Virus record (IMG/VR): IMGVR_UViG_2579778873_000001
Span: 9,557 to 73,556 of that record
DNA length: 64,000 bases
Direction: 5' to 3' (one strand)
From: a virus
Lineage: Duplodnaviria > Heunggongvirae > Uroviricota > Caudoviricetes
Positions 8,259-63,080 of this stretch are shown here, in pieces; the first letter of the stretch is position 1; each line of letters starts with the position of its first letter. The notes below the pieces were generated by a model. That model was not told the origin of the DNA. It saw only the letters and a list, made by a program, of their open reading frames with translations, and did not search any database. The position numbers and the translations under genes are program-made.

Positions 8259-8390
8259 GGTTAAGCCCTAAATTCGGGCGCGGCGTGAAGGTTCTTTTGA
8301 CGGGCTAACAATACCTACTTTGTGATTTAGTCAATAGTTTTAGTAAAATAAAATCTATTAACAGTCATGTTGTTATGTGTTTTAATTTTA

Positions 8391-8406
8391 ATTTTCTAAC
8401 ACAAAA
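8391..8406. promoter_or_regulatory. C1-type operator motif (ATTTTCTAACACAAAA)
   Basis: Member of a dispersed motif family; sits between divergent operons, 11 bp upstream of the 8417 start. Confidence 0.5.
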
Positions 8407-9284: not shown

Positions 9285-9583
9285 TCCCCCTTCCCTTCCC
9301 AAATCTCCCTGTTTTTTTGGTTATTCAGTGCGTTTCGTTGGTTGCATTCGTCGATCGTGCTGAATAACTGTTCAGCGTATGTCGGATACTTGTTTAACAG
9401 CACTGGCGTGTCTTCTGGCACTAAACAAGGGGAGTAGTCAATCAGATTTGCCTGCGGCCTGCTGGTGGCTTCTACGGTAATTTTCACTGGCACGCTGGTT
9501 GATGGCTTTTGCCCGTTCCCGCTGCATCCTGATAACGTCATCAGGCACACGTACATCGTTAATCCCAGCACGGCGTAACGCAT
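9272..9583 (-). CDS. o-spanin (Rz1-like outer-membrane lipoprotein)
   Basis: Lipobox LSGC after a hydrophobic signal (internal Met MRYAVLG...); starts inside the i-spanin gene in another frame and extends past it (overlapped architecture); periplasmic Cys residues. Confidence 0.55.
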   Translation of the reverse strand: MRYAVLGLTMYVCLMTLSGCSGNGQKPSTSVPVKITVEATSRPQANLIDYSPCLVPEDTPVLLNKYPTYAEQLFSTIDECNQRNALNNQKNREIWEGKGDQGS

Positions 9584-18995: not shown

Positions 18996-19007
18996 TTCTC
19001 ACCATTT

Positions 19008-19044
19008 ATGTTAGAAAATACGCGTTAATTATCTAACACAAATG
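19008..19044. promoter_or_regulatory. Pair of C1-type operator motifs
   Basis: atgttagaaaata (19008-19020) and aattatctaacacaaatg (19027-19044) in opposite orientation, directly upstream of the rdgC start. Confidence 0.5.
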
Positions 19045-26925: not shown

Positions 26926-27549
26926 ATGAAGGATGGTGTAGTGAAGTTAAGGGCTTTAGGGGCCGCGCTCGCGGCTATGTTGGGATGCGTATCTGCTAAT
27001 ACTGCCAATGCAACTGCGTTACCTGCACAATTCAGGGCAGGGCAGCAGGTTATGAATAACGCTGGTGGAGTTCATTCACAAGCGGCCATTATGGACTTTT
27101 GCAAGAGGGAGGGCATTCCATTACGGCCTGTTGGAACTCAGTTTATTGGTAAAACTGACTTTTGCGTTTTTGCATATACAGCATATCTGACGGACAAAGC
27201 TATAACAAAAACAGGTTATTCAACCAAAGATACTCTTTCCAGATTAAGTCAGGGATGGCAGCAATTCGAAGTGTATCGCCAGCAAGGATTAGGTGAGTTA
27301 TTGCAACCTCTTTTTATGCTTGCGTTGGTGCCAGAGGGGCAGCAATTTTTGGTTAAAAAGGGAATGCTTCGCCAAAGTGATATTGCCGGGTTCGATAGCA
27401 TGATGGCTTATGAGCGCAAACTAACCGAGCAGCGAAATAAAAAACCATCTGCTTCATGTGTGCAAAGTAAAACAGCAGAATACAGTGCAGTAGCCGGGCC
27501 TTTAGCCAAACAAATGGCAGAGCAATGGTGTAAAAAATACGGGCAATAA
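26926..27549 (+). CDS. Predicted lipoprotein, function unknown (cargo)
   Basis: Signal peptide with lipobox LGCVSA; 207 aa. Confidence 0.55.
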   Translation: MKDGVVKLRALGAALAAMLGCVSANTANATALPAQFRAGQQVMNNAGGVHSQAAIMDFCKREGIPLRPVGTQFIGKTDFCVFAYTAYLTDKAITKTGYSTKDTLSRLSQGWQQFEVYRQQGLGELLQPLFMLALVPEGQQFLVKKGMLRQSDIAGFDSMMAYERKLTEQRNKKPSASCVQSKTAEYSAVAGPLAKQMAEQWCKKYGQ

Positions 27550-27569
27550 GTTACGCAGCGGAGGCAGAA

Positions 27570-27962
27570 TTGAAAAGATTGGCTATTGCTTTACTGGCGT
27601 CTTTCCCTTTGATCGCGAGCGCCGGAGATTTACAAGTTAAGTGCGGTCGGTTTGATATAAAAATCTATCCAGATGCCATATTTCTGAATGGGAATAAGGT
27701 TGATAACGCACACCGAAAAACTGAATCTGACGTAATGAGCTATGTGTTCCAGGAGTATGCGGAGATGGGGGGAACTTACACGCTGTACTCGCTGGATGTT
27801 CCTTCTCGCGGTGATATGACATTATCCCATCAATGGCAGAACGCCGACGGCGAAGCTCTGCGCGAGGTTAAAACAGAAAAATGTGGCACTTTCCATTCTT
27901 TTAAAGGGAAAGCGCCAAATGTTAAATCTGTGCTTGAAAAACAGCGCGCAGGTGAGCTTTAA
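27570..27962 (+). CDS. Predicted secreted/periplasmic protein, function unknown (cargo)
   Basis: Sec-type signal peptide MKRLAIALLASFPLIASAGD; 130 aa; 20 bp after the lipoprotein gene. Confidence 0.55.
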   Translation: MKRLAIALLASFPLIASAGDLQVKCGRFDIKIYPDAIFLNGNKVDNAHRKTESDVMSYVFQEYAEMGGTYTLYSLDVPSRGDMTLSHQWQNADGEALREVKTEKCGTFHSFKGKAPNVKSVLEKQRAGEL

Positions 27963-28517: not shown

Positions 28518-28836
28518 TTTGACACCCCCAGCGCGAGTAAAGAATGCAGATTATCGCGTGAGTGGCGGACAACGAGTGACGGGAAAAGACAGTAGCTGTT
28601 CATAGTGTAGTGACTCCTTGCTTTCGGAGCCGCCATCGACTGTTCCACGGTCTGGTGGCGGCGCAATAAAGGCTGGAACACCGTGAGTCAACGGGGGCTT
28701 TTCAGCCACCTATATTGCACCGCCATAGGTATGGCGGCGGCAATAATACGAAAAACTATACAGTTTGTCTCAAAAAGTTGACCGGTGTGCCAATCGGTAG
28801 TGAATGTACATCGGAGAAATTTATAATTCAACTTAA

Positions 28837-28853
28837 AATGTTAGAAAACTAAT
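28837..28853. promoter_or_regulatory. C1-type operator motif (AAATGTTAGAAAACTAA)
   Basis: Overlaps the 3' end of the ref-like gene; oriented toward the structured region and small ORF to its left. Confidence 0.45.
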
Positions 28854-29466
28854 TCGTCAATTCAATCGCCATCTGATACAACGTCATTTCATCAGCATTG
28901 TGCCGCCTGAAATCTGCTTTACCGCCTATTTTTCCATCAGCATGAACAGGAACCAACCAGGGGTATTGCTCGCGGATCTCTGCTGGCGCTGCGTGTTGAT
29001 GGTGCCATTTACACAAAGGGAGGACGTATTTATGCGCGTTCTCTGCTGTTCTTCCGAAGATGTGGTGCAGGGATACCACAGGGCTATGCTGTCCGTGCAT
29101 ATGGCAGGCAATGCAGGGGAGAGCACCGATGGCAGTTTGTATCCGGCGCTCATCTGCTGTGAGTGTTCTGCCTTTCAGGCCGCGTGACGCGCGAGTTTTT
29201 TTGACAGGAGCAGAAGCGGCCTTCTCTTTTCTTCGCTGTTCATATTGCTTCGCTTTTTCAATTTTCTTTTGCCGATATTCAGGCGATGCGGCTTTTTCTC
29301 GCGCACGCTGCTGCTGGCGTTGAGCTTGCTGAAGACGCTTTGCCCTTTGTTCCTCCCGCCATTTCGGATCAGCCAGTTTTTGCAGGGCTTTTTGTGTCTG
29401 TTTCTCCCAATAGCTTTGCTTCATAGAAATACCCGGTTTGTCTACATAGCCGCTATGGTTGATCAA
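28849..29466 (-). CDS. HNH endonuclease, Ref-like (P1 recombination enhancement function family)
   Basis: 205 aa; basic N-terminal coiled region then HNH core (LPCIACHMHGQHSPVVSLHHIFGRTAENAHKYVLPLCKWHHQHAAPAEIREQYPWLVPVHADG); operator pair directly upstream. Confidence 0.5.
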   Translation of the reverse strand: MINHSGYVDKPGISMKQSYWEKQTQKALQKLADPKWREEQRAKRLQQAQRQQQRAREKAASPEYRQKKIEKAKQYEQRRKEKAASAPVKKTRASRGLKGRTLTADERRIQTAIGALPCIACHMHGQHSPVVSLHHIFGRTAENAHKYVLPLCKWHHQHAAPAEIREQYPWLVPVHADGKIGGKADFRRHNADEMTLYQMAIELTN

Positions 29467-29467
29467 A

Positions 29468-29506
29468 CATGTTAGAAAATCAAAATTGATTTTCTAACAC
29501 AAAATG
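29468..29506. promoter_or_regulatory. Palindromic double operator at a divergent promoter
   Basis: catgttagaaaatc / gattttctaacacaaaatg: two motifs as inverted repeats with a 6-bp spacer, between the ref-like gene and the rightward early operon. Confidence 0.55.
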
Positions 29507-34346: not shown

Positions 34347-34373
34347 TCAAATCATTTACGCACTCAAAATTAC

Positions 34374-34407
34374 GTTAGAACGTTGATTTTAGTTTTCTAA
34401 CATATTA
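34374..34407. promoter_or_regulatory. Operator motif pair upstream of 34445
   Basis: agttttctaacatatt (34392-34407) plus weaker half cgttagaacg (34374-34383). Confidence 0.45.
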
Positions 34408-41761: not shown

Positions 41762-41833
41762 GCTGCAAAGTGCTGGTGCTTTATACCTGTGAAGTTTATA
41801 GTTGTGTACACATAACGAGTACATGAGGTGTTT

Positions 41834-42055
41834 ATGCAATCCATTAACTTCCGTACCGCGCGCGGCAACCTTTCTGAAGTGCTCAACAATGTTGAAGCCG
41901 GGGAAGAGGTTGAAATCACCCGCAGAGGCCGAGAGCCAGCAGTAATTGTCAGCAAGGCTACTTTTGAAGCCTACAAAAAAGCGGCGCTGGATGCTGAATT
42001 TGCATCCCTGTTTGACACCCTGGACTCCACCAACAAGGAACTGGTTAACCGATAA
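41834..42055 (+). CDS. phd: Antitoxin Phd
   Basis: 73 aa from Met [23 protein letters not shown]..., matching P1 Phd as recalled; preceded by GTGTACAC-type palindromes. Confidence 0.9.
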
Positions 42056-42435
42056 TGAGGCATATATCACCGGAAGAACTTATTGCGCTTCATGATGCGA
42101 ATATAAGCCGCTACGGCGGCCTGCCGGGAATGTCAGATCCGGGTAGGGCAGAGGCCATTATCGGTAGAGTTCAGGCCAGAGTTGCCTACGAAGAGATCAC
42201 CGACCTTTTCGAAGTCTCCGCCACCTACCTGGTAGCTACGGCGAGAGGGCATATATTCAATGATGCCAATAAGCGTACCGCGCTAAACAGTGCGCTGCTA
42301 TTTCTACGCCGTAACGGCATACAGGTATATGATTCTCCCGTGCTGGTGGAACTAGCGGTGGGGGCCGCAACTGGTGAAATCCCCGTATCTTCAGTAGCGG
42401 AAAAACTACGTGAATTATTTGGTCCCAATATTTGA
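42055..42435 (+). CDS. doc: Toxin Doc (Fic-fold kinase)
   Basis: 126 aa, [25 protein letters not shown]...[11 protein letters not shown], close to P1 Doc; ATGA-coupled to phd. Confidence 0.9.
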
Positions 42436-45404: not shown

Positions 45405-45422
45405 GATGTGTTAGAAATTTAA
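45405..45422. promoter_or_regulatory. C1-type operator motif (GATGTGTTAGAAATTTAA)
   Basis: Between the recombinase gene end and the 45350 start. Confidence 0.45.
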
Positions 45423-45423
45423 T

Positions 45424-46452
45424 TTACGAATCCATCAGGCGGCTATTAGCCCCCACAGACACACCGCCACGGCGCAGATACCGCATAAGTGTTTCCGGTT
45501 TCTTCCAGGTTCCTTCCTGCATGATCTCCACCATAGACACCTGCTTTTCAGCCATATCAATAGCGGCCCCGACGCGTGCACTATGCCCGGTCCACGTCCG
45601 GTATCTCCCTTTGTTTGGCGTAGCATCTCTTTTATTCAGCAACACCCAGGCGTCGCTGAATATTTTCTCCATTGCAGGTGCAGTAAGGGGCGTTGTCGTG
45701 ATCCTGGCCTTATTGCTACGGTGTATCGGCGGGAACAGCACTGCGTCACGATGTTCGCGAAGCCCGGAAACATCCAGCCAGTCATTCAGCACAGCGGTAG
45801 TGCGACGGGAAAGCACCTTATCAAGCCCGGCGGCGGTCGTTATTGTCTTCGTGTGTGAAATATGTAGCGTGACAGTGTCACCTGTTTGGTCCAGATCTCC
45901 TACACGAATACGCGAGATTTCCGACATACGCATCAGCGTATTGTATGCAACAAAGAGAAAAGCCCGGTTGCGCAGGTCCACCAGCCGTTCTGACCTGGAC
46001 AACAGGACGTCGAGCAGTTTCAGATCGTCCCACCGCAGCGGTATAGCCTGGCCTGTTCGTTCGCCTTTTTCAGTTGCCGCTTCGCGCCGGATGCGCCGCA
46101 TAGCCAGAGAAACACTTTTATCATCCGAAAGTGGCGGAAGGCCACAATGCGAAAGCAGCATGTTCAGCATGGCGTAGTGCTTATCAATGGTGGTCGAAGC
46201 CAGATCGGCATCATGCAGCTGAAGAAAATACTCGCGGGCCATTTCTGGTGAGATCGGGAACCAGGCGAGCTGGCGAGCGTGACACCAGCGCGCCCAGGAA
46301 TGAAACACCAACCGGAGGTCGCGCAGAGTATTCGGCGCATAAGCCCCCTGGTCATTCATGAACCGCATAAAGTTTTCTGCGGCTTCCTGGTACTCTTTGC
46401 CAATGTTGCGCAGAAAACCACCGGAACTGCCAGAGATAATTAATTCTCCCAT
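45424..46452 (-). CDS. Cre-family tyrosine recombinase (Dre-like)
   Basis: 342 aa colinear with P1 Cre (WFPISPE, LNMLLSHCGLPPLSD, AFLFVAYNTLMRMSEISRIRVGDL, WTGHSARVGAAIDMA, LMRYLR); rox-like site 150 bp upstream. Confidence 0.85.
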   Translation of the reverse strand: MGELIISGSSGGFLRNIGKEYQEAAENFMRFMNDQGAYAPNTLRDLRLVFHSWARWCHARQLAWFPISPEMAREYFLQLHDADLASTTIDKHYAMLNMLLSHCGLPPLSDDKSVSLAMRRIRREAATEKGERTGQAIPLRWDDLKLLDVLLSRSERLVDLRNRAFLFVAYNTLMRMSEISRIRVGDLDQTGDTVTLHISHTKTITTAAGLDKVLSRRTTAVLNDWLDVSGLREHRDAVLFPPIHRSNKARITTTPLTAPAMEKIFSDAWVLLNKRDATPNKGRYRTWTGHSARVGAAIDMAEKQVSMVEIMQEGTWKKPETLMRYLRRGGVSVGANSRLMDS

Positions 46453-46604: not shown

Positions 46605-46636
46605 TAACTTTAAATAATCCCCATTATTTAAAGTTA
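46605..46636. other. rox-like recombination target site (14-bp inverted arms, 4-bp spacer)
   Basis: TAACTTTAAATAAT-CCCC-ATTATTTAAAGTTA: perfect 14-bp inverted repeats; arms match the D6 rox arms as recalled, spacer CCCC. Confidence 0.65.
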
Positions 46637-46816
46637 TAAAATGCCGATTTTTTTTGTAATCCATCATAGATTGATGATGGACAGTAACACGTTGCCTTCA
46701 TGGTCTTTAATTTGCGAAGTGTGGTTTCAACGGTTGGTTTTCTAAAGTTGATGACAAAAAAATCATAGTTCGATCCTTTACTCACTCTGTTATTCGACAT
46801 AGATTTGTCATAGGGA

Positions 46817-46836
46817 TTTTATGTTAGAAAACTAAA
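46817..46836. promoter_or_regulatory. C1-type operator motif upstream of the candidate repressor gene
   Basis: ttttatgttagaaaactaaa, 14 bp upstream of the 46850 start. Confidence 0.5.
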
Positions 46837-46849
46837 TCGAGTAGGAATA

Positions 46850-47887
46850 ATGAGTAAGAAGTCGATCGAGAAAGAGTACAAACGGTTCCTGCAAACCGCT
46901 GAACGGTGGAAAGAGCTGGTGGTCGCAAACTCTGTTTTCCATGATACCAGTTATGCTGGCGAGGAATTCCGCCACGTTGCACTAACACACGACCAAAATG
47001 TACTAGAAGAAGCTGAAAAGTGCCTCGCAGAATGGAAAGCCTTTGTTGACTTGTGCCGTAATGCTGACGGCAAAGCGTCTAACATTGTTGAGTCTGTATA
47101 TTCTCCGATCCCATTCATCATTGAGGACACCAATCAAAGCACGCATGTTGTTGTGCAAAGCGCTACAACAACACGTACATTTACACGTGAACAATTGCTC
47201 AAAAAATACGACAAAATCATAAAGAAAAGCCTGAAAAATAGGGTTTTTTCTCAAATCGTAGGTGCTCTTGAAGAAGAACAGCGCTTCTTTGAAGCTGAGC
47301 CTGAAGGCGAGGTCTACCGGGCGCGTAAAGAGGCATATACAGATGTTGTGCTGACAACAAACATCGAAGGCAGCAATGCCCTTTCTCGCTTTAGAGTTGG
47401 CGCACATGGCGCATTCGTTTTCGCAAAACTACCGAAGACAACGATCCCCGTTGTCAATAATGTTGGTGAACGCCGTAGCATTACAATTTATTCTGGCGTC
47501 GAATCGGTGCCTTGCAGCCTTCTCGGCGACTTTAGCTTATATCGTGTTCGTGACCTGGAAAAACATCAGCCAAGCTACGTTGCGAAGTCGTATATCTTAA
47601 GGAACATCGATATCCGCAACGAAAACCTTAAGCAGAAATCAGCTAAGATGCTGGAGGATGCCGATCCGGCTATTCGCCATATCATTGAACGTAAGATTCG
47701 TACATCGCGTGAAGCAATGGCAAGGCTGGATAAAATGGATCTGGAATTGTTAGACGTAATGATGGCCTCTGGAGACGACCTGACCGGCATCAAACTGAAT
47801 GAAGCGCGTAAAAAATACGGCAAAGCAATCGAAGAACGTTACGGATACACATTCCCCCAAACGCAGCGCGCCGCAAAGCTCTGGTAA
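46850..47887 (+). CDS. Hypothetical protein; positional candidate for the C1-type master repressor
   Basis: 345-aa ORF in the position the c1 operon holds in P1 (divergent from the recombinase across the lox-like site, convergent with pacB) with an operator in its promoter; no sequence-level confirmation. Confidence 0.4.
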   Translation: MSKKSIEKEYKRFLQTAERWKELVVANSVFHDTSYAGEEFRHVALTHDQNVLEEAEKCLAEWKAFVDLCRNADGKASNIVESVYSPIPFIIEDTNQSTHVVVQSATTTRTFTREQLLKKYDKIIKKSLKNRVFSQIVGALEEEQRFFEAEPEGEVYRARKEAYTDVVLTTNIEGSNALSRFRVGAHGAFVFAKLPKTTIPVVNNVGERRSITIYSGVESVPCSLLGDFSLYRVRDLEKHQPSYVAKSYILRNIDIRNENLKQKSAKMLEDADPAIRHIIERKIRTSREAMARLDKMDLELLDVMMASGDDLTGIKLNEARKKYGKAIEERYGYTFPQTQRAAKLW

Positions 47888-47915
47888 TCACCACCGGCCC
47901 CGCACTGCGGGGCTT

Positions 47916-49424
47916 TTATATATCCAGATCCGGCATTTCGATATCCGCCAGAACCTGATCTCGGAAAGTTGCCATTTCGGCACCAATATCTTCATTAGCA
48001 GGCACATAGTCCACCAGCATAGTGAAGCAGTAGGTATCCCATCGGTCAGGCGATTTGATGTTTAGCTTTTGCCGCATGTGCTCTTTGCGCATCATCGCCA
48101 TTTTCCCTTCTTCATTCAGTAAAAAGGGGATTTTTGACGCTTGCTCTGCCGTTTTAGAGTCACTGTCTATCCGCATACGCCCTGACTTTATGGCATCACG
48201 CGCCATAATATTTGCGTAGGCTCGCTGATTAACAAATCGCTCCCTGTCTTTGTTCGCAAACATGGGTTTTCCCCACCGAATACGTACCGGGTTCGCACCA
48301 CGACGCACCAACTGCGCACACGTATCAGAACCAAAACCATCAGCATCAACCGCGATTGTTATATTCGGGTATTTTTCCGGCGTACATTCGTTATATATGA
48401 AGTCAGCAAAGGCCAATGGGTCCATAGTGCCAGGCATCTCCATTACCTTAAAGTTAACAACGCGCCGCTTATCCCTGTGACCTGATACCTTGCAGATGTT
48501 GAGGACCGACTTATCTCGCCCATTACCAACGTCAGCCGTTGCCACCCATCCCCAGTTTTTCTCCAACAACACCTTGCGGCGAGCAGCGCGATCGCATTCA
48601 TCACGACCAAGCAAATAGCCGTTAATTTCTCGTGGGAACTGACCAAGCACCTTGACCATGTACTCAATAGAATCGCGCCCGCCATATTCCAGAAGCTTCT
48701 CCTTGATGAATTGTGGTGTGACGAACGGTGATTCTTCCGAGTTAAGAACAATTGCTGTCCAGATCCCTTTCGGGTTGTCTGGGGTTTTTGCTCGAGAATG
48801 GTGCGAATCGTAGAAATAACCACTTGGCCTTGTTGGCTGGGATAGCATCAACATCCGGTTATCTTCTTCAGTAAGAGCACCGGTCATTACGCCGATCGCC
48901 TTATCAGATATACCAGATGCTTCATCCAGAATTAGAAGCAAATGTGCCGCGTGTTCCCCCGCCAGCGCTTCTTCGTTGCCGAGTCGATAACCTTTGCAGA
49001 GAACTTCCCAAATCCCCTTACGGGAGCGCTCATAAAACATGGTGTCAGAGAGGACAAAATAGGTCTGCAACCACCCATGACGCTTAACTGCATTCGCCCA
49101 ATACTGTTTAACGTATTTGAATACGCCTGTTTTTACCTGGCCTATCTTGTTAGCAACAATGATGACACGGGCATCGGGGAACAGGATCATAAAAATCAAC
49201 AGCAACATCGCGGTAAGGGACGACTTCCCCGTTCCGTGTCCGGACGTGACGGTAGTCCTACTCCCCGTTTCCTGTACGGACTGAATGATCTGCTGCTGCT
49301 GGTGGGAGGGGAACATCCCAAAAATATCGACAACAGCCTGGGTAAAGTTGTAGCGGTATTTGATTACCATATCGCGCCAGCGTGGATCTCTGGTGACGCA
49401 TTTAACCTTGCGCCTGCCAGCCAT
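47916..49424 (-). CDS. pacB: Terminase large subunit (PacB-like)
   Basis: 502 aa with Walker A TSGHGTGKSS and downstream acidic nuclease-type residues; coupled to the upstream small subunit. Confidence 0.7.
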   Translation of the reverse strand: MAGRRKVKCVTRDPRWRDMVIKYRYNFTQAVVDIFGMFPSHQQQQIIQSVQETGSRTTVTSGHGTGKSSLTAMLLLIFMILFPDARVIIVANKIGQVKTGVFKYVKQYWANAVKRHGWLQTYFVLSDTMFYERSRKGIWEVLCKGYRLGNEEALAGEHAAHLLLILDEASGISDKAIGVMTGALTEEDNRMLMLSQPTRPSGYFYDSHHSRAKTPDNPKGIWTAIVLNSEESPFVTPQFIKEKLLEYGGRDSIEYMVKVLGQFPREINGYLLGRDECDRAARRKVLLEKNWGWVATADVGNGRDKSVLNICKVSGHRDKRRVVNFKVMEMPGTMDPLAFADFIYNECTPEKYPNITIAVDADGFGSDTCAQLVRRGANPVRIRWGKPMFANKDRERFVNQRAYANIMARDAIKSGRMRIDSDSKTAEQASKIPFLLNEEGKMAMMRKEHMRQKLNIKSPDRWDTYCFTMLVDYVPANEDIGAEMATFRDQVLADIEMPDLDI

Positions 49425-50788
49425 TAATCATCCTCCGGCGGTTCTATCGCGATATCATCATCTCCGGCGTCATACCCTGCATCAGATGCATCATAATCAC
49501 CGTAAATTTCAGCCGTTGCCGAAGGGTCAATATCCAGCTCTTCGTCGTTGGCCTCGAATTCTCCAGCTTTACGCTCGCCATTGCGGTCGTAATCTCCGCA
49601 CCCCAATTCTTCAACAATGGTTGCCACATCCGCCCGGCGCTCTGCCAGCCATTGCGGATGGTTAGCCTGAAGCGTTGCAAACTCCCTTGCCTCTTTGTCC
49701 AGCTGTTCATCATCAACATCATTGACGTCAGAAACAGGTGGTTCGAGAAGAGTGATAGCTTTCGCCGCGCGCGCCGCGAGGATAGCCGGGACGCTGACAC
49801 CCTGGCGCTCGATGTATTCAGCAACACCGATATCATCCAGTTCCTCGCGCTCACGCATACGTATAGCGGCGGCGATAACTCTGGCTGCGCGTGCGTCAGC
49901 GCCAATGCGATATTCAATCTCTTTGCCACGCTGTTCGGCCTGTAGGCGTGCTAATTCGAGTTTTTCTCTGGCCTCAGCCTCTTTGAATGCTTGCTGGCGA
50001 GCGCTCTGACGAAGCTTTTCATCCCCCTGTCGCAGCTTTTGTTCGGACTGATAAATAGCTGCCAACCTACTGATAAAATCATTCATGTAGTAGGCCGCGT
50101 CACTGATTAGACCGAGAAGGCGCTGCCCAGGGTGCATTCCTTCTGGCTCTTTATCGCCCAGGGTGTCTATTTCCGCCTGTAGACGTTCGGCCTCCTGATC
50201 AACAATGCTTTGATACTGAAGTGCGCGCTCTTGCGCCATTTGAATTGCTAACCGCAGGTGTTCTTCTGCGCCGTTCTTCATCATATCGCGAGCTACATTC
50301 GTAGTTGGCAATGTGGCACGCTGCACAGCACCGTCAGGGATCATTGCAGAAGATCCCTCAATTTTTGGGGCGCTTTTATCTTCTTCGGGGATCATTTTCG
50401 CCATTTTTTCGCGTAATGATCTCCTGACGGATTCTTTTATCTCATTGTTATTATTTGAATTATTTTCATGATCCGAAGTTTTCTTTCTCGGCATACTTCG
50501 GAAAGAACCTGCGCCCTGCGAATTGTCAATTTCTGTAAATTTTGTTTTTCCTGCACCCTCTTCCTGCTTTTTTGTTGCTCTTCCTGCCCGTTTTTTTTCA
50601 GGTGATTTGGTGCTTTTTTTTGTTGTCTTTACCTGCGACCGCACCTCATTTTTTTTCATATTGAGATGCTTTCTGGCTGTATTGAAGCTAAGGCCATGCT
50701 CCTCACAGTATTCCTTTACAGTGATCCCTTTTTCTTCACGCAACGCTATAAAGCGGGCGCGGTGCTCCTCCCAATTAACCAGACTCAT
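49424..50788 (-). CDS. pacA: Terminase small subunit (PacA-like)
   Basis: N-terminal HTH-like segment, charged coiled-coil middle, acidic C-terminus; position directly upstream of the large subunit. Confidence 0.55.
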   Translation of the reverse strand: MSLVNWEEHRARFIALREEKGITVKEYCEEHGLSFNTARKHLNMKKNEVRSQVKTTKKSTKSPEKKRAGRATKKQEEGAGKTKFTEIDNSQGAGSFRSMPRKKTSDHENNSNNNNEIKESVRRSLREKMAKMIPEEDKSAPKIEGSSAMIPDGAVQRATLPTTNVARDMMKNGAEEHLRLAIQMAQERALQYQSIVDQEAERLQAEIDTLGDKEPEGMHPGQRLLGLISDAAYYMNDFISRLAAIYQSEQKLRQGDEKLRQSARQQAFKEAEAREKLELARLQAEQRGKEIEYRIGADARAARVIAAAIRMREREELDDIGVAEYIERQGVSVPAILAARAAKAITLLEPPVSDVNDVDDEQLDKEAREFATLQANHPQWLAERRADVATIVEELGCGDYDRNGERKAGEFEANDEELDIDPSATAEIYGDYDASDAGYDAGDDDIAIEPPEDD

Positions 50789-51177
50789 AAAGCAACACCA
50801 CGCTTTTTAACGGCGGCATTCCACAGCTTATTCGCCATGTCCACCAGCTCTCGTTGCTCTTTTCGCGCCTGTTCGACTGATTTCCTGCTACAGTTTTTAA
50901 CCAGTAAACTGCCGTATTCAGGGGTTCGCCCACGCACCTTGAACTGATATCCGTTCAGGCCATGCAACCAGTATTTTCGTGGGTAAACGCGATCATCAAG
51001 CTCACAGATTGCCCTGCTTGAACGAACAAAATGACGAATGATGTTAGTTACACTTACCCGTGAAACATGGAGATGAGGGTATTTTTCTTTGGCGAGAATG
51101 GTAATTTCAGTGACTGTCAGATAGCAGTCAGCCCTAATCATGATATCCGCAATTTCTGCGCTGCTGATTTGTTCCAT
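50785..51177 (-). CDS. Late-promoter activator candidate (Lpa-like), by synteny
   Basis: 130-aa ORF at the head of the lpa-pacA-pacB-like operon with an operator 75 bp upstream; named by position only. Confidence 0.4.
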   Translation of the reverse strand: MEQISSAEIADIMIRADCYLTVTEITILAKEKYPHLHVSRVSVTNIIRHFVRSSRAICELDDRVYPRKYWLHGLNGYQFKVRGRTPEYGSLLVKNCSRKSVEQARKEQRELVDMANKLWNAAVKKRGVAL

Positions 51178-51250: not shown

Positions 51251-51270
51251 GATTGTATTAGAAAATTAAT
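51251..51270. promoter_or_regulatory. C1-type operator motif upstream of the packaging operon
   Basis: gattgtattagaaaattaat. Confidence 0.5.
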
Positions 51271-51285
51271 ACTAAATATCTAATG

Positions 51286-52707: not shown

Positions 52708-52783
52708 TGGTGGCCCCTACCGGACTTGAACCGGTGACCGTGCGATTATGAGTCGCCAGCTCTAACCACTGAGCTAAAGGGCC
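52708..52783 (-). tRNA. tRNA with CAU anticodon (ileX-like tRNA-Ile2, or Met)
   Basis: 76-nt cloverleaf read by hand: acceptor GGCCCTT/AGGGGCC, anticodon loop CTCATAA, T-loop TTCAAGT, encoded CCA; close to E. coli ileX as recalled. Confidence 0.8.
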
Positions 52784-54798: not shown

Positions 54799-54874
54799 TG
54801 GTGCCGGTTAACGGACTCGAACCGCTGACATCCTGCTTACAAGGCAGGCGCTCTACCAACTGAGCTAAACCGGC
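54799..54874 (-). tRNA. tRNA-Thr (UGU)
   Basis: 76-nt cloverleaf: acceptor GCCGGTT/AACCGGC, anticodon loop CTTGTAA, T-loop TTCGAGT, CCA encoded. Confidence 0.85.
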
Positions 54875-54876
54875 AT

Positions 54877-54952
54877 TGGCGATGGTGGATGGATTTGAAC
54901 CATCGACCCGTTGATTAACAGTCAACCGCTCTAACCGCTGAGCTACACCATC
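54877..54952 (-). tRNA. tRNA-Asn (GUU)
   Basis: 76-nt cloverleaf: acceptor GATGGTG/CACCATC, anticodon loop CTGTTAA, T-loop TTCAAAT, CCA encoded; 2 nt from tRNA-Thr. Confidence 0.85.
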
Positions 54953-55533: not shown

Positions 55534-56171
55534 GATGCGGCACTCTCTCCGCCCGTCACCGCTCTGTCTCGGTTGTCGCGTTTGCCACGCCAGCCATAAC
55601 GAGGTTTAAAGTCTTTGCACGTTCCCATCACTCGACTGCCGTCTGTGGCTGTTCGTTGCAGCGGGGGTGCCTCCCCCTGGGGATGTCCCCGGCCTTACCC
55701 CATTCTTTCAAGACACAATGCAAGGCCACATCCGCATAGGTGCATTACCGCAACATTAAGGAGACTCAGGGCAAAAGGTAACCGCCACAAAAATCCCTAT
55801 GCCTCCTTAATGTTGAAGATGTGCATTGATGATTAGATGCAGCATGTACCGTTACTCTCTGCCGGACCATCATCAATGAACACCTTAAAAAGACCTTCCG
55901 TGGCTCAACATGTACTGTCGTTTACTCCGCAAAGTGCTCTCTCTGAAACCACTTTCCGCACTAAACCTGCTGAACTTTGGCCTGCACGGTGCCAAAGCGT
56001 GCTCTTGCGTTACTATACTTTTCTAACGCTTTAATTTGTTAAATGCTGGTGGGCGAACAATAACCAATAAGTGACTATCAAGCCCAGCAAGCGAAACGTG
56101 GGTGCCGCCCACCAGCAAGGAAAATTCTATGTTAAGTTACCTTCACAATCAATACATTCGAATCGTAATTT

Positions 56172-56190
56172 TAGATTTCTAACACATTAT
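56172..56190. promoter_or_regulatory. C1-type operator motif (TAGATTTCTAACACATTAT)
   Basis: Overlaps the stop of 56187..57410; oriented toward the gene-free region and tRNA cluster. Confidence 0.45.
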
Positions 56191-57410: not shown

Positions 57411-57420
57411 TTTGCTAAAT

Positions 57421-57440
57421 TAGTTTTCTAACATATTTTA
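57421..57440. promoter_or_regulatory. C1-type operator motif
   Basis: tagttttctaacatatttta. Confidence 0.5.
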
Positions 57441-58019: not shown

Positions 58020-58466
58020 TTAATCAAGATTTACATATTCCGTGATAGCTTTTATGGCTTCATCGGCACTGCGCGCCTCAAAGCAGTAATAGCCTGCTTC
58101 CGTGAGGCGAGTCATCCAGACGAGCTGTTCGGGAGTCAGACGGTTTCTCCCGTGCTTCATCTCAATGCGCATTCCGTGATACCCACCACGAGCAAGGTCA
58201 ATAGAAAGGTCCGGATAGCCCTTCTTCTGACCTTCTGCCACCATCTTAATGGCTGTCCTTTTGCCTCTCAGGCCGCCGTTCGGTGTTGAGTGTGTGTGCT
58301 CATACACGTATCGCATGTTGCGATACAGCCAATCCAGAACGCGAACCTGTTCGTAATGTTCGTAATTCCGTTTTAATAAGTCAGGATTTCTTTCTAACTC
58401 TCTCAGTGCAGCAGCGTGCGGGGATATTTCAGAATACGCACTATGATGCCTGCGTCTTCGCATCAA
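58020..58466 (-). CDS. VRR-NUC domain nuclease (PD-(D/E)xK superfamily)
   Basis: 148 aa with GYPDLSIDL ... RIEMKHGRN arrangement typical of VRR-NUC; operator overlaps its start. Confidence 0.55.
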   Translation of the reverse strand: MMRRRRHHSAYSEISPHAAALRELERNPDLLKRNYEHYEQVRVLDWLYRNMRYVYEHTHSTPNGGLRGKRTAIKMVAEGQKKGYPDLSIDLARGGYHGMRIEMKHGRNRLTPEQLVWMTRLTEAGYYCFEARSADEAIKAITEYVNLD

Positions 58467-58482
58467 TTTTCTAACACAAAAT
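58465..58482. promoter_or_regulatory. C1-type operator motif overlapping the nuclease start codon
   Basis: caattttctaacacaaaa. Confidence 0.5.
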
Positions 58483-58634
58483 TCCTTAAATCATGAACAC
58501 GATAATAACAAGATCGTTAGCTTTATCAAAATCGAGGGGAATACTACTAAAGAGATAGGCGAATGCAACAGGTCGGACTTGTTTTTAGAATAAATGGTGA
58601 TGCGGGTCAACAAGCCGGGTAAATTGTATGTCAT

Positions 58635-61600
58635 TTAACTATTCTGTGTCGGGGTCATTATTGAAATTATTGTCCCACCGGCCCCACCGCCAGCACCGAA
58701 AAACGTCTCGCTGTTCGAGTATGCCTTGCAGCCGCCCCCTCCGCCACCGCCGCCCGTTATTGTGACCCTGATCCGTTTTGTTCCTGGGGTTGGGGTATAC
58801 GTACCTGATGAAGTGAAAACCTGGGTATTCACCAAACGCCCAACATATCCGCTTGAATCGCTCAGGCCAAGGTTAGCAGCAGTTAAAGTAATATTTGCAG
58901 AACCATCAAACTTAACACCGTTGATAGTGCGTGCAGTCTGTAGTTTCGTTGCGGTTGCGGCATTACCGGTAGTGCTCTGATTACCTGCTTTATTCACGCC
59001 CGGCAGGTCGATATTGGCACTACCATCGAATGACACTCCGCCTATTGTGCGTGCTGTTTGCAGTTTTGTTGCAGTTGCAGCATTGCCGGTAGTGCTCTGA
59101 TTACCTGCTTTATTCACGCCCGGCAGGTCGATATTGGCACTACCATCGAACGACACGCCGCCGATTGTGCGTGCAGTCTGTAGTTTCGTTGCGGTTGCGG
59201 CATTACCGGTAGTGCTCTGATTACCTGCTTTATTCACGCCCGGCAGGTCGATATTGGCACTACCATCGAATGACACTCCGCCGATTGTGCGTGCTGTTTG
59301 CAGTTTTGTTGCAGTTGCAGCATTACCGTTCAAACTACCATTGATGCCGCCAGTAACATTGAGTCCATTACCGATCGTAACAGTACCATTGGCGTTGTTA
59401 ATAATAAGCGGCCTTAAATTATTATAGGTTCCCAGGCTGTTACCCGAATCGGTCAACATGAAAAATGTGTGTGAACCATCGTTTCGGATAAAGAATCCGT
59501 AGTTTCCGTAGGCAATGCGCTGACCATTCGCCGATTTTGAAATGATCTCACCAGTAGCCGTTAAACCGCCTTTGAGATTTCCTCCGGTTATTGGGAATGC
59601 GCCGACATCCGTGGCGGTCGGTTTAATGTGCGAACTGTAAATGACATATACAGTTCCATCTGTCAGGCCTGTTGGTTTATCCGCTGTATAAGATGGTGAT
59701 GTATGAATCGTTACGCTGGCGTTCCTGGTATAATCCCACTGGATATTTACACCCGTGGCGTAATTACCTATTTCAACATAAACATCATAGGTATCACCGG
59801 ATGTATTCACCCATGCAAAATTAGTAAATCCAACCGATGTCCGTCGCCATAACGCACCGGTAAGACCTTTTGGATTCCCATTTCCCGCACGAAGAACAAG
59901 TTCAGATATACCAGCCTGCATAGGGGAGTTAACATTATATCCAGCACCACCAATCAGGCTTATGTAAACCATAGAACTGGCCTGTGGCATGGTTACAGTT
60001 GCCAGCTTGAACCATCCAGCACCACCACTAAAAGACATTGTTGTTGAGTTGATCGTGCCTATAGACCTTGGAGTTAGCTCAATGTTTTTAGAACCGTCAA
60101 ACGACACCCCATTTATAGTTCTCGCGGTTTGTAACTTGGTCGCTGTAGCCGCGTTACCGGATGTATTCTGATTACCCGCAACGTTAACACCAGGTAAATT
60201 AATATTCGCAGTACCATCAAAGCTAACTCCGCCGATAGTTCTTGCCGTCTGTAGTTTTGTAGCAGTTGCTGCATTGCCAGTTGTATTCTGATTGCCAGTG
60301 GCATTCACACCAGGAATGGAGTCCCTTGATGTATATACCTGCGCCCACGCTGACCATGCCGCATCAGCGTAATCTCTTCGGGAGCGAATGAAAACCGGCG
60401 CATGTGCACCGCTCGTACCACTCCAGCCAATAAGCAACTCGCCCTCACCAGCAGCACTCGCACCTTTCATGTGCAATACGTTGCCATACGCGGTCGGGTA
60501 GCTATTGTTGTACGCCTCATACATCTGCAATCCAGTAGCAGCACCTTGTGTTGTATCGGTGAGCGCAGTAACACGCCCTCTGGACGTGATTGTTGGTATC
60601 GAAATGTTCGCAGAACCATCAAACTTAACACCGTTGATTGTGCGGGCTGTTTGCAGTTTTGTAGCGGTTGCAGCATTACCGGTAGTGCTCTGATTACCTG
60701 CTTTATTCACGCCCGGCAGGTCGATATTGGCACTACCATCGAATGACACTCCACCTATTGTGCGTGCTGTTTGCAGTTTCGTAGCGGTTGCAGCATTGCC
60801 GGTAGTGCTCTGATTACCTGCTTTATTCACGCCCGGCAGGTCGATATTGGCACTACCATCGAACGACACTCCGCCGATTGTGCGTGCTGTTTGCAGTTTT
60901 GTGGCGGTGGATGCATTACCTGTCAAAGATCCACTAAGAGCCACGGCACGAAGAGACTTAACACTTACATCCTGACCCCATCCGGAAACAACAACCTGAC
61001 TCCACGCTGCCCAGCTTCCATTAACAACAAAGCGAACGTATATACGTTTTGTGTCGTTGCTGATCAGCGTTTGCATGTTCGCATAATCCGAAGCAGAAAC
61101 TTTGCGAGTCGACTCTACACGGAGCAAAAAGTTACCGGTTACACCGTCAGGCTTGTTGGTGATATTTGCACCACCTCCAAAGGTTGGACAACAATAATAT
61201 TTAATTGCCCCGACATCTGAGATGATGGTCAGGTTGTTAAGATCAACCGTCTGGCCGCCAATGTCTTCCGGATCGATGGCTCCTGCTATCCCGGCACTGA
61301 ATGTAGCAGCGGCTGAAAACGCTGTCTTACCTTTGAAAGTCTGTTGAGAACTCCAGGTATTAGCTGTGCTCAACAGGGGGATCTTTTCGCCGCTGGTTCC
61401 GATTTCTCTTAAACCAAGGTATTGGATAACAGCCAGTGTGCTTGTTTTAGCCAGGATATCGCGACCGACTGACGTTAAATCAGTCTGGGAAACAGTGTCT
61501 GTACCGGTAAAGTACGGCAATTTATTTGCGCCTGTCGCAAGCCCAGCAAGCGCGGTTAAAGTTGCATCAAGTGGCTGTTTGCCTGCCAGCGCATTTGTCA

Positions 61601-63080
61601 TTGTTGTCGCAAAGTTCGGGTCATTGCCCAGTGCTGCTGCAAGCTCATTCAGGGTATCAAGAGCTTCAGGTGATGAGCCGACCAATGCAGAGATAGCAGC
61701 TCTTACATAAGCGGTCGTAGCAATCTGCGTGTTATTCGTACCCTGTGCAGCGGTAGGCGCAGTAGGTATTCCCGTTAATGCAGGACTTGCTAAAGGAGCT
61801 TTAAGAGCCAGAGCATTGTTGATAGTTTTGCTGAAATTCGGGTCGTTATTGATCGCAGCCGCTATTTCTTTAAGCGTATCCAGTGTGCCAGGTGCACCGT
61901 TGATAAGTGCCGTTATAGCTGCCTTAACAAAGGCTGTATTTGCAATCTGCGTGCTATTTGTGCCTTGTGAGGCCGTAGGCACTGTCGGCGTACCGGTGAA
62001 CGCCGGGCTTGCCAAAGGAGCTTTAAGAGCCAGAGCATTGTTGATAGTTGTGCTGAAATTCGGGTCGTTATTGATCGCAGCCGCTATTTCTTTAAGCGTA
62101 TCCAGTGTGCCAGGTGCACCGTTGATAAGTGCCGTTATAGCTGCCTTAACAAAGGCTGTATTTGCAATCTGCGTGCTATTTGTGCCTTGTGAGGCCGTAG
62201 GCACTGTCGGCGTACCGGTGAACGCCGGGCTTGCCAAAGGAGCTTTAAGAGCCAGAGCATTGTTGATAGTTGTGCTGAAATTCGGGTCGTTATTGATCGC
62301 AGCCGCTATTTCTTTAAGCGTATCCAGTGTGCCAGGTGCACCGTTGATAAGTGCCGTTATAGCTGCCTTAACAAAGGCTGTATTTGCGATCTGCGTGCTA
62401 TTTGTGCCTTGTGAGGCCGTAGGCACTGTCGGCGTACCTGACAGATGCGGACTATTGAGCGGAGCTTTTGTATCAACCAAATCATGAAGAGTTTTGACAG
62501 CCAGAGGTGTAGCCGCTTTTCTTTCTTCTGTACTGCTTATTTCATTAGAGAATTCGACACCAACAGCACGGTTAACTCGGTATTTAAGCACAATCATTTC
62601 TTTAGTCACAGCCGTTGCGCCGCTAGGCACGATAACTCGACATAATTCAATTTGATTCTGCCCAATAGTATTGTCCCTACGCGCGTAAATTCTTGCAGCA
62701 CTGACAGAAGATGCGCTCTCTACCTGTGTCGTTTTTACACCATGTTCAAAATTGGCTTCCAGCACAATAATGTTGGTAGCCCCAGCCTTTACCGAGACAG
62801 TCACATCTTCTATTTGCTGAATGGATATCTGAACATTATTTACATCTACTGAAGCAGCCCCTTTACCTTCTGAGTTTTCAGAAGTTATACGGACGCTCAA
62901 CCCTGTGCCGGGAACTGGTTCAAATCCACAGTAAAAGCCCGGCAAAACAATATTTTTAAGTTTTCTGTTAAGAGCAGAACTACTATAGAGTTCGAAATAT
63001 TGAACATCAGCAAGCAACGGCTGTGAGACACCAGAGGATAGTGTCATTATGTTGTTCGTTTTATCAGCACCCATAATCAA
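58635..63080 (-). CDS. Tail fiber protein (1481 aa) with modular repeats and Gly-rich C-terminus
   Basis: Three 74-aa repeats near the N-terminus (NTAFVKAAITALINGAPGTLDTLKEIAAAINNDPNF...), many 40-aa repeats (TARTIGGVSFDGSANIDLPGVNKAGNQSTTGNAATATKLQ), tail GGGGGGGGCKAYSNSETFFGAGGGAGG. Confidence 0.8.
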   Translation of the reverse strand: MIMGADKTNNIMTLSSGVSQPLLADVQYFELYSSSALNRKLKNIVLPGFYCGFEPVPGTGLSVRITSENSEGKGAASVDVNNVQISIQQIEDVTVSVKAGATNIIVLEANFEHGVKTTQVESASSVSAARIYARRDNTIGQNQIELCRVIVPSGATAVTKEMIVLKYRVNRAVGVEFSNEISSTEERKAATPLAVKTLHDLVDTKAPLNSPHLSGTPTVPTASQGTNSTQIANTAFVKAAITALINGAPGTLDTLKEIAAAINNDPNFSTTINNALALKAPLASPAFTGTPTVPTASQGTNSTQIANTAFVKAAITALINGAPGTLDTLKEIAAAINNDPNFSTTINNALALKAPLASPAFTGTPTVPTASQGTNSTQIANTAFVKAAITALINGAPGTLDTLKEIAAAINNDPNFSKTINNALALKAPLASPALTGIPTAPTAAQGTNNTQIATTAYVRAAISALVGSSPEALDTLNELAAALGNDPNFATTMTNALAGKQPLDATLTALAGLATGANKLPYFTGTDTVSQTDLTSVGRDILAKTSTLAVIQYLGLREIGTSGEKIPLLSTANTWSSQQTFKGKTAFSAAATFSAGIAGAIDPEDIGGQTVDLNNLTIISDVGAIKYYCCPTFGGGANITNKPDGVTGNFLLRVESTRKVSASDYANMQTLISNDTKRIYVRFVVNGSWAAWSQVVVSGWGQDVSVKSLRAVALSGSLTGNASTATKLQTARTIGGVSFDGSANIDLPGVNKAGNQSTTGNAATATKLQTARTIGGVSFDGSANIDLPGVNKAGNQSTTGNAATATKLQTARTINGVKFDGSANISIPTITSRGRVTALTDTTQGAATGLQMYEAYNNSYPTAYGNVLHMKGASAAGEGELLIGWSGTSGAHAPVFIRSRRDYADAAWSAWAQVYTSRDSIPGVNATGNQNTTGNAATATKLQTARTIGGVSFDGTANINLPGVNVAGNQNTSGNAATATKLQTARTINGVSFDGSKNIELTPRSIGTINSTTMSFSGGAGWFKLATVTMPQASSMVYISLIGGAGYNVNSPMQAGISELVLRAGNGNPKGLTGALWRRTSVGFTNFAWVNTSGDTYDVYVEIGNYATGVNIQWDYTRNASVTIHTSPSYTADKPTGLTDGTVYVIYSSHIKPTATDVGAFPITGGNLKGGLTATGEIISKSANGQRIAYGNYGFFIRNDGSHTFFMLTDSGNSLGTYNNLRPLIINNANGTVTIGNGLNVTGGINGSLNGNAATATKLQTARTIGGVSFDGSANIDLPGVNKAGNQSTTGNAATATKLQTARTIGGVSFDGSANIDLPGVNKAGNQSTTGNAATATKLQTARTIGGVSFDGSANIDLPGVNKAGNQSTTGNAATATKLQTARTINGVKFDGSANITLTAANLGLSDSSGYVGRLVNTQVFTSSGTYTPTPGTKRIRVTITGGGGGGGGCKAYSNSETFFGAGGGAGGTIISIMTPTQNS
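58925..59330. repeat. Near-perfect 120-bp tandem repeats (block 1) inside the tail fiber gene
   Basis: Units start at about 58921, 59041, 59161, 59281, differing at a few positions. Confidence 0.8.
60600..60900. repeat. Near-perfect 120-bp tandem repeats (block 2) inside the tail fiber gene
   Basis: Same unit family as block 1 with diverged copies at 60100-60300; the blocks flank a unique central segment. Confidence 0.8.
61640..62450. repeat. Near-perfect 222-bp tandem repeats in the tail fiber 5' region
   Basis: gccgctatttctttaagcgtatccagtgtgcc recurs at about 61858, 62080, 62302. Confidence 0.8.

Follow-up and report, generated by a model that had tools for sequence, protein, structure and literature searches.

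A D6-type C1 repressor gene and its putative operators in a plasmid prophage

The stretch of DNA analysed here (64,000 nucleotides of the IMG/VR virus record IMGVR_UViG_2579778873_000001, positions 9,557 to 73,556; hereafter the window) carries at 46850..47887, on the plus strand, an open reading frame (ORF) of 345 amino acids (aa), whose product is in all likelihood the C1-type master repressor of lytic functions in a plasmid prophage related to phage D6. An earlier note on this DNA had proposed a master repressor at this place from its position, and the comparison with D6 agrees with that guess: the gene is annotated as the c1 repressor in both D6 records, and its product is a distant homologue of P1 C1. 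This identity has been public since 2004, therefore the identification of the repressor is not in itself new. What goes beyond the annotation is a model of the operator and of how it is conserved, the combination of a subfamily-specific C-terminal module with the lack of Coi and Lxc, and the predicted Tus-like fold of the C1 family.

The c1 product as a distant member of the C1 family

The c1 product is 97.4% identical to C1 of phage D6 over all 345 residues, with 9 amino-acid substitutions. D6 C1 (GenBank AAV84948 / ASR76322, D6_1 'prophage repressor') is described in the 2004 immC record as 'phage repressor protein; similar to the C1 repressor of phage P1' and in the 2017 genome as 'prophage repressor'. 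At the codon level, 30 differences from D6 c1 are synonymous and 9 nonsynonymous, which indicates that the gene is under purifying selection. Similarity to P1 C1, for which an alignment had been suggested in the earlier note, is present as well, at 20% identity over 242 residues (BLASTP, E 5e-8). A full-length match to PHROG 1678 was obtained for the ORF (E 1.4e-167) and for P1 C1 (E 2.6e-140), the latter spanning profile positions 1-280 of 347, and all close relatives of both the ORF and the P1 C1 subfamilies carry a precomputed assignment to PF27008 ('Phage_P7_repressor_C1'). The Pfam scan of the ORF itself was empty because the copy of Pfam that was scanned does not contain PF27008. The C1 family is small: when 1.84 billion representative proteins were searched with a profile, 133 matches were obtained. 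Residues R41, W62, P86, R157, R159 and G187 of the window C1 are invariant in the family.

In the alignment with P1 C1 the homology extends over residues 1 to about 245, and the protein is composed of two parts:

46850..47584 (+): residues 1 to ~245, the body common to P1 C1, for which an alpha/beta fold like that of Tus is predicted
47585..47884 (+): residues 246-345, a helical C-terminal module absent from P1 C1 (alignment and AlphaFold2)

The window C1 and the C1 of P1/P7 (283 aa, as given in the earlier note) are alike in the immC position, in the homology of ~240 residues, in the lack of a helix-turn-helix and in the predicted fold, but they are separated by the low identity given above. 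The role of master repressor in a temperate phage is also the point of likeness to the lambda CI and LexA-like repressors, which combine a helix-turn-helix with an S24 peptidase and use clustered palindromic operators, whereas the D6-type sites are asymmetric and dispersed. Neither a helix-turn-helix nor an S24 autocleavage domain was found in the window C1 by the Pfam scan, and the predicted alpha/beta fold resembles that of Tus. Judged by the homology with P1 and by the placement of the sites described below, this C1 would bind its operators, regulate its own gene and confer immunity.

Two results weigh against the assignment. The NCBIfam model NF041318 (phage_rep_C1), which is a P1-C1 equivalog, matches residues 7-240 of the ORF with E 9.6e-6 and 25.3 bits, far under its equivalog cut-off of 500 bits, which P1 C1 exceeds with 607.5 bits. 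Moreover, no consensus sigma-70 promoter was found by a promoter scan beside the operator that precedes c1. The ORF is homologous to the family but remains far below that cut-off, therefore it is regarded as a genuine distant member of the C1 family and not as the P1 C1 equivalog.

The ATG of c1 is preceded by AGGA. The earlier note had placed the ORF at 46817-47887; the 345-aa frame stands, but it starts at 46850, and position 46817 belongs to the non-coding upstream region with the operator. The arrangement that the earlier note had likened to P1, with c1 divergent from a recombinase across a lox-like site and convergent with pacB, is confirmed by the window neighbours, and comparison with D6 identifies the recombinase as Dre and the inverted repeat as rox. 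Recombinase, rox, c1, pacB, pacA and lpa follow one another in this order also in D6, in P1 and in two further relatives (L009 and L010). The features of this region are the following:

45424..46452 (-): Dre-like (Cre-like) tyrosine recombinase, 342 aa, divergent from c1 (ORF and D6 match)
46605-46636 (no strand): rox site, a 32-bp inverted repeat and target of Dre, between dre and c1
46850..47887 (+): c1, D6-type C1 repressor (97.4% identity to D6 c1, PHROG 1678, PF27008 in relatives)
47896-47914 (no strand): G+C-rich hairpin terminator followed by T's, separating the convergent c1 and pacB
47916..49424 (-): pacB, terminase large subunit, 502 aa, convergent with c1 (ORF and D6 match)
50785..51177 (-): lpa, late promoter activator (ORF and D6 match; PF25716 BPP1_LPA in relatives)

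The rox site of the window reads TAACTTTAAATAAT-CCCC-ATTATTTAAAGTTA. Its arms are conserved among the relatives, apart from a right arm in L010 that is one base short at its end, and the spacer varies, being GCCA in D6 and L009 and GGGA in L010. With spacers that differ in this way, related elements might be unable to recombine with each other through Dre.

Operator sites and the putative regulon

The earlier note had predicted dispersed operators, and they are present at gene boundaries, including those before c1 and lpa. The octamer TTCTAACA occurs in 11 exact copies in the window against 1.88 expected, a number reached in none of 100 dinucleotide-preserving shuffles. When these 11 sites are aligned, conservation extends past the octamer and gives a consensus of approximately AWWTTRRTTTTCTAACAYA, which is asymmetric and about 19-21 base pairs (bp) long. 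With a position matrix 16 sites were located in the window, at gene boundaries, and overlapping inverted pairs are formed at three places. The sites are listed below, with gene names taken from the D6 annotation and distances in nucleotides (nt):

46819..46839 (-): c1 operator CGATTTAGTTTTCTAACATAA, putative autoregulation site, ending 10 nt before the ATG
51253..51273 (-): operator before lpa, core TTCTAATA (a one-base variant), 75-76 nt from the lpa ATG
29467..29502 (no strand): inverted overlapping operator pair between ref (-) and a rightward operon, abutting the ref start
19006..19041 (no strand): inverted operator pair, 10 nt before the hrdC-methylase operon
34370..34405 (no strand): inverted operator pair (one member weak), 39 nt before the pdcB homologue
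8384..8404 (+): operator between the major capsid gene and the D6 orf52 homologue
28836..28856 (-): operator at the ref 3' end
45406..45426 (-): operator over the dre stop codon, 55 nt before the orf117-dut operon
56167..56187 (+): operator at the pmgS 3' end
57416..57436 (+): operator 5 nt before the pmgS start
58459..58479 (+): operator over the start of a pmgM-like gene

The pair at 29467..29502 is what the earlier note had described as a palindrome at 29468-29506, which the matrix resolves into two overlapping inverted operators.

The operator before c1 contains the reverse-complement core TGTTAGAA at 46822-46829 and is identical in D6 (196-216). The distance of 14 bp upstream given for it in the earlier note is approximately right; the matrix site ends 10 nt from the ATG, and another choice of the operator's end changes the figure. 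A site so close to the start codon suggests negative autoregulation of c1. A TATGTT hexamer overlaps this operator and is conserved in three relatives; its -35 partner is not convincing, therefore no c1 promoter was assigned from it. About 100 nt before c1, at 46736-46747, lies a degenerate operator-like sequence, GGTTTTCTAAAG, which scores under the matrix threshold and could be a second, weak site or have no meaning at all.

The lpa gene is a probable key target of repression. Its operator is kept in D6, L009 and L010, and it lies 76 nt from the lpa ATG, in the same orientation as the annotated P1 Olpa, for which the distance is 71 nt. Sites are found at the same places in D6, with further ones before the icd/ant module and repL. 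D6 has 17 matrix sites: 13 are wholly and 3 mostly non-coding, and one lies inside a gene, while non-coding DNA makes up 10.2% of the D6 genome. Moreover, the core TTTTCTAACA is kept just before c1 and before lpa in L009 and L010, whose C1 proteins are 52% and 48% identical to that of the window. A full-text literature search for TTCTAACA returned unrelated papers only.

In P1, 22 asymmetric C1 operators have been described, lpa and repL are under their control, and the roles of Coi and Lxc are established (PMC8546580). The D6-type system is similar in that its asymmetric operators are numerous and dispersed, with bivalent ones among them, and lie also before its own c1 and lpa; P1 has five operators before c1, whereas the D6-type has one. 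The regulon thus looks like that of P1 C1, with a different operator sequence. The P1 operator ATTGCTCTAATAAATTT (PMC8546580) and the D6-type AWWTTRRTTTTCTAACAYA have only the core T-CTAA-Y-A in common, and no P1-type operator occurs in the window even when three mismatches are allowed. Because the operator sequences differ, the D6-type system is probably heteroimmune to P1, with a separate immunity specificity. The operator model and the regulon map for the D6 immunity type may therefore be used for the prediction of heteroimmunity among P1-like phage-plasmids.

The assignment of these sites to C1 has to be weighed against the view that TTCTAACA is bound by another regulator, and that the ORF has another target or is not the immunity repressor. 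Binding by C1 is deduced from sequence comparison, the window covers 64 kb of the element, and the D6 annotation includes two helix-turn-helix proteins of the HigA type. Nevertheless, c1 is the sole gene called a repressor in the D6 annotation, and the distribution of the sites mirrors the P1 C1 regulon (c1, lpa, ref and the methylase operon, and in D6 also repL and immI). The motif core also tracks c1 through relatives that are 48-52% identical, and part of it is common to the P1 operator. A different regulator is therefore considered quite improbable.

With C1 as the regulator, the following mechanism is proposed. C1 would bind asymmetric operators of ~19-21 bp (approximately AWWTTRRTTTTCTAACAYA) at gene boundaries, some of them arranged as overlapping inverted pairs. 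Their occupation would silence early and lytic operons, above all that of the late-promoter activator lpa, and in full-length D6 the repressed set would additionally include repL and one c4/icd/ant module. Occupation of the operator 10 nt before c1 would keep the repressor level under negative autoregulation.

Predicted fold and the relation to Tus

The window C1 was modelled with AlphaFold2 from a 19-sequence alignment (mean predicted local distance difference test score, pLDDT, 84.8; predicted template modelling score, pTM, 0.54). In the model, an alpha/beta body, which includes two very long beta-hairpins, precedes a long helical hairpin (233-307) and, after it, three short helices. When the PDB was searched with it by Foldseek, four matches were obtained at E <= 0.001, and all of them were Tus, with E values of 5e-8 to 4e-6, a probability of 1.00 and the whole of Tus aligned. 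This suggests that the body of the window C1 has the two-domain fold of Tus, and a Tus-like fold is predicted for the whole C1 family.

Tus acts as a monomer: its interdomain beta-strands clamp the Ter site, which is asymmetric and 23 bp long, and through TerB it represses its own gene; P1 C1 has likewise been described as a monomer on its asymmetric operators. For these reasons a Tus-like fold is a coherent model for the C1 family. The Tus protein of E. coli (PF05472; PDB 1ECR, 4XR0) resembles C1 in recognizing an asymmetric site and in having one just before its own gene, TerB lying 12 nt upstream of the tus ATG. The two differ, however, in that they show no significant sequence similarity and in their role, which for C1 would be transcriptional repression by analogy with P1. 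In the mechanism proposed, residues 1 to ~245 would form a DNA-binding body with the two-domain Tus fold, in which the asymmetric site is read as it is by the interdomain beta-strands of Tus, and C1 could therefore work as a repressor without a helix-turn-helix. To our knowledge, no structural explanation has so far been given for the binding of C1 to asymmetric sites without a helix-turn-helix, and the Tus-like fold offers a concrete model for it.

Several results weigh against the relation to Tus. The template modelling scores (TM-scores) to Tus are low (0.35-0.40), and so is the pTM of the model. The alignment of profiles by hhalign against a single Tus sequence or a low-diversity Tus alignment gave a probability of 4-5%, a further homologue search yielded only Tus proteins >80% identical, and a profile search of PDB sequences gave no match. 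The window C1 has no match to the Pfam Ter family (PF05472) and does not belong to the Tus family by sequence. Among 79 C1-family members, two have sub-threshold matches to PF05472 (best E 0.012), and a local Tus hidden Markov model (HMM) gave weak matches (E >= 0.035), mostly in one register, with Tus ~160-245 against C1 ~90-170; the hhalign register is similar. By sequence methods the homology of Tus and C1 is therefore hinted at and not established. Taking both sides together, we lean slightly towards the view that the C1 repressors of the P1/D6 phage-plasmids are structural, and probably evolutionary, relatives of Tus, which read their operators with interdomain beta-strands in a Tus-like clamp. 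No paper in the literature searched makes this link, and a database entry or a paper beyond that search may note it. The tus gene is narrowly distributed and has been proposed to be domesticated from a plasmid gene (PMC6549158). If the kinship with C1 is true, tus shares its ancestry with the repressor of a mobile element, which bears on the origin of Tus.

A predicted Tus-like fold also raises the question of whether C1 is primarily an orientation-dependent barrier to forks and helicases, or a factor of DNA topology, and the sites Ter-like elements and not targets of a repressor. Besides the fold, this would agree with sites that are asymmetric and scattered in both orientations, and with a c1 operator that resembles the TerB upstream of tus. 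The operator (46820-46836, 13 nt before the ATG) can be written as TATGTT-AGAAA-ACTAAA and TerB (L008 4233-4247) as TATGTT-GTA-ACTAAA. This resemblance was rejected as independent evidence: a window-wide alignment scan gives the operators high ranks, yet matches to TerB that are just as good arise by chance in the window, and the resemblance therefore carries no weight. Furthermore, the homologous C1 of P1 is experimentally a repressor of lytic functions (PMC8546580), the sites lie almost only at gene boundaries, immediately before start codons, as is expected of operators and not of fork traps, and the sequence is outside PF05472. A primary role as a fork barrier thus appears extremely unlikely, and repression of transcription is retained as the probable function of C1.

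The C-terminal module, predicted as the long helical hairpin with the three short helices (AlphaFold2 helices H233-269, H276-307 and H316-342), is a segment of 100 residues standing where the alignment gives P1 C1 a short basic tail of ~40 residues. It is confined to the long members of the family (about 344-380 aa), of which there are about twenty, most members having 240-300 aa. The module is conserved and specific to this subfamily, and it probably mediates self-association or the binding of a partner.

Immunity functions and the element compared with D6

The earlier note had seen no room for a coi-like gene before c1, and this holds: the gap from rox to c1 is 213 bp, and the longest same-strand ORF in it has 34 aa. 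Homologues of Coi, ImcA, ImcB and Lxc (Bof) were found by tblastn neither in the window nor in D6. In D6, orf13 (L004 11549-11809, 86 aa) adjoins ulx, which is the place of lxc (82 aa) in P1; it has no detectable sequence similarity to Lxc, falls into a different PHROG and is absent from the window. By its position, orf13 is a candidate for the corepressor of D6. In a system without the Coi and Lxc of P1, the helical C-terminus of C1 would provide self-association or partner binding. A circuit of the D6 type, which lacks Coi and Lxc and has an extra C-terminal module, indicates that the decision circuit of P1 is not universal in the group.

No C4 antisense RNA was detected with Rfam in the 64-kb window. 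D6 has two C4 RNAs (L004 20964-21049 and L005 29233-29320), accompanied by icd and antirepressor genes, as well as matches to isrK and c4-a1b1. Since the Rfam matches to C4 are confined to D6, the visible 64 kb has a repressor but no antirepressor module. A C1 homologue, two c4/icd regions (one with an antirepressor) and no Lxc have been reported for a D6-like plasmid of Salmonella (PMC6799933).

The window follows the D6 map colinearly from 45.8 kb across the rox origin as far as 11.5 kb, with 92-98% identity in long blocks, and it matches plasmids of about 91 kb from E. coli and Salmonella at 96-98%. On both grounds the element is regarded as a D6-like plasmid prophage; such prophages are common in plasmid collections of E. 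coli and Salmonella. At a junction at 58466-58637, by the 1481-aa tail-fibre gene 58635-63080 (-), the colinearity jumps from 11.5 to 35.8 kb of D6. The D6 block of 11.5-35.8 kb, which contains orf13, ulx, darB, one c4/icd/ant module, repL, the protease, the portal, darA, lydAB and cin, is not at this junction, and none of the best-matching plasmids among the matches listed continues across it. D6 carries simB, pmgF, the antirepressor, icd and a C4 RNA at 72.3-75.4 kb; the counterpart in the window (26926-27962) has two ORFs of 207 and 130 aa with N-termini that resemble signal peptides.

These absences are what could be expected if the plasmid prophage were defective and c1 a decaying relic in it, with its regulatory role lost: both c4/icd/ant modules are missing within the window, and so is the D6 block with repL, the portal and the protease at the expected junction. 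The state of the gene argues otherwise. The ORF is intact and of full length, it differs from D6 c1 mainly by synonymous changes (30, with 9 nonsynonymous), the operator, the ribosome-binding site and the terminator are conserved, and the other operators of the window are intact; moreover, only 64 kb of the element is in view. The loss of regulatory function is accordingly held to be highly improbable, and an active D6-type C1 repressor, with the dre, rox, c1, pacB, pacA and lpa neighbourhood of D6, remains the preferred reading.

Other features are also common to the window and D6. Three transfer RNA (tRNA) genes are located at 52711-52783, 54802-54874 and 54880-54952 (-), as in D6, and a phd/doc-like toxin-antitoxin pair (75 and 126 aa) is located at 41828-42435, as in both P1 and D6.

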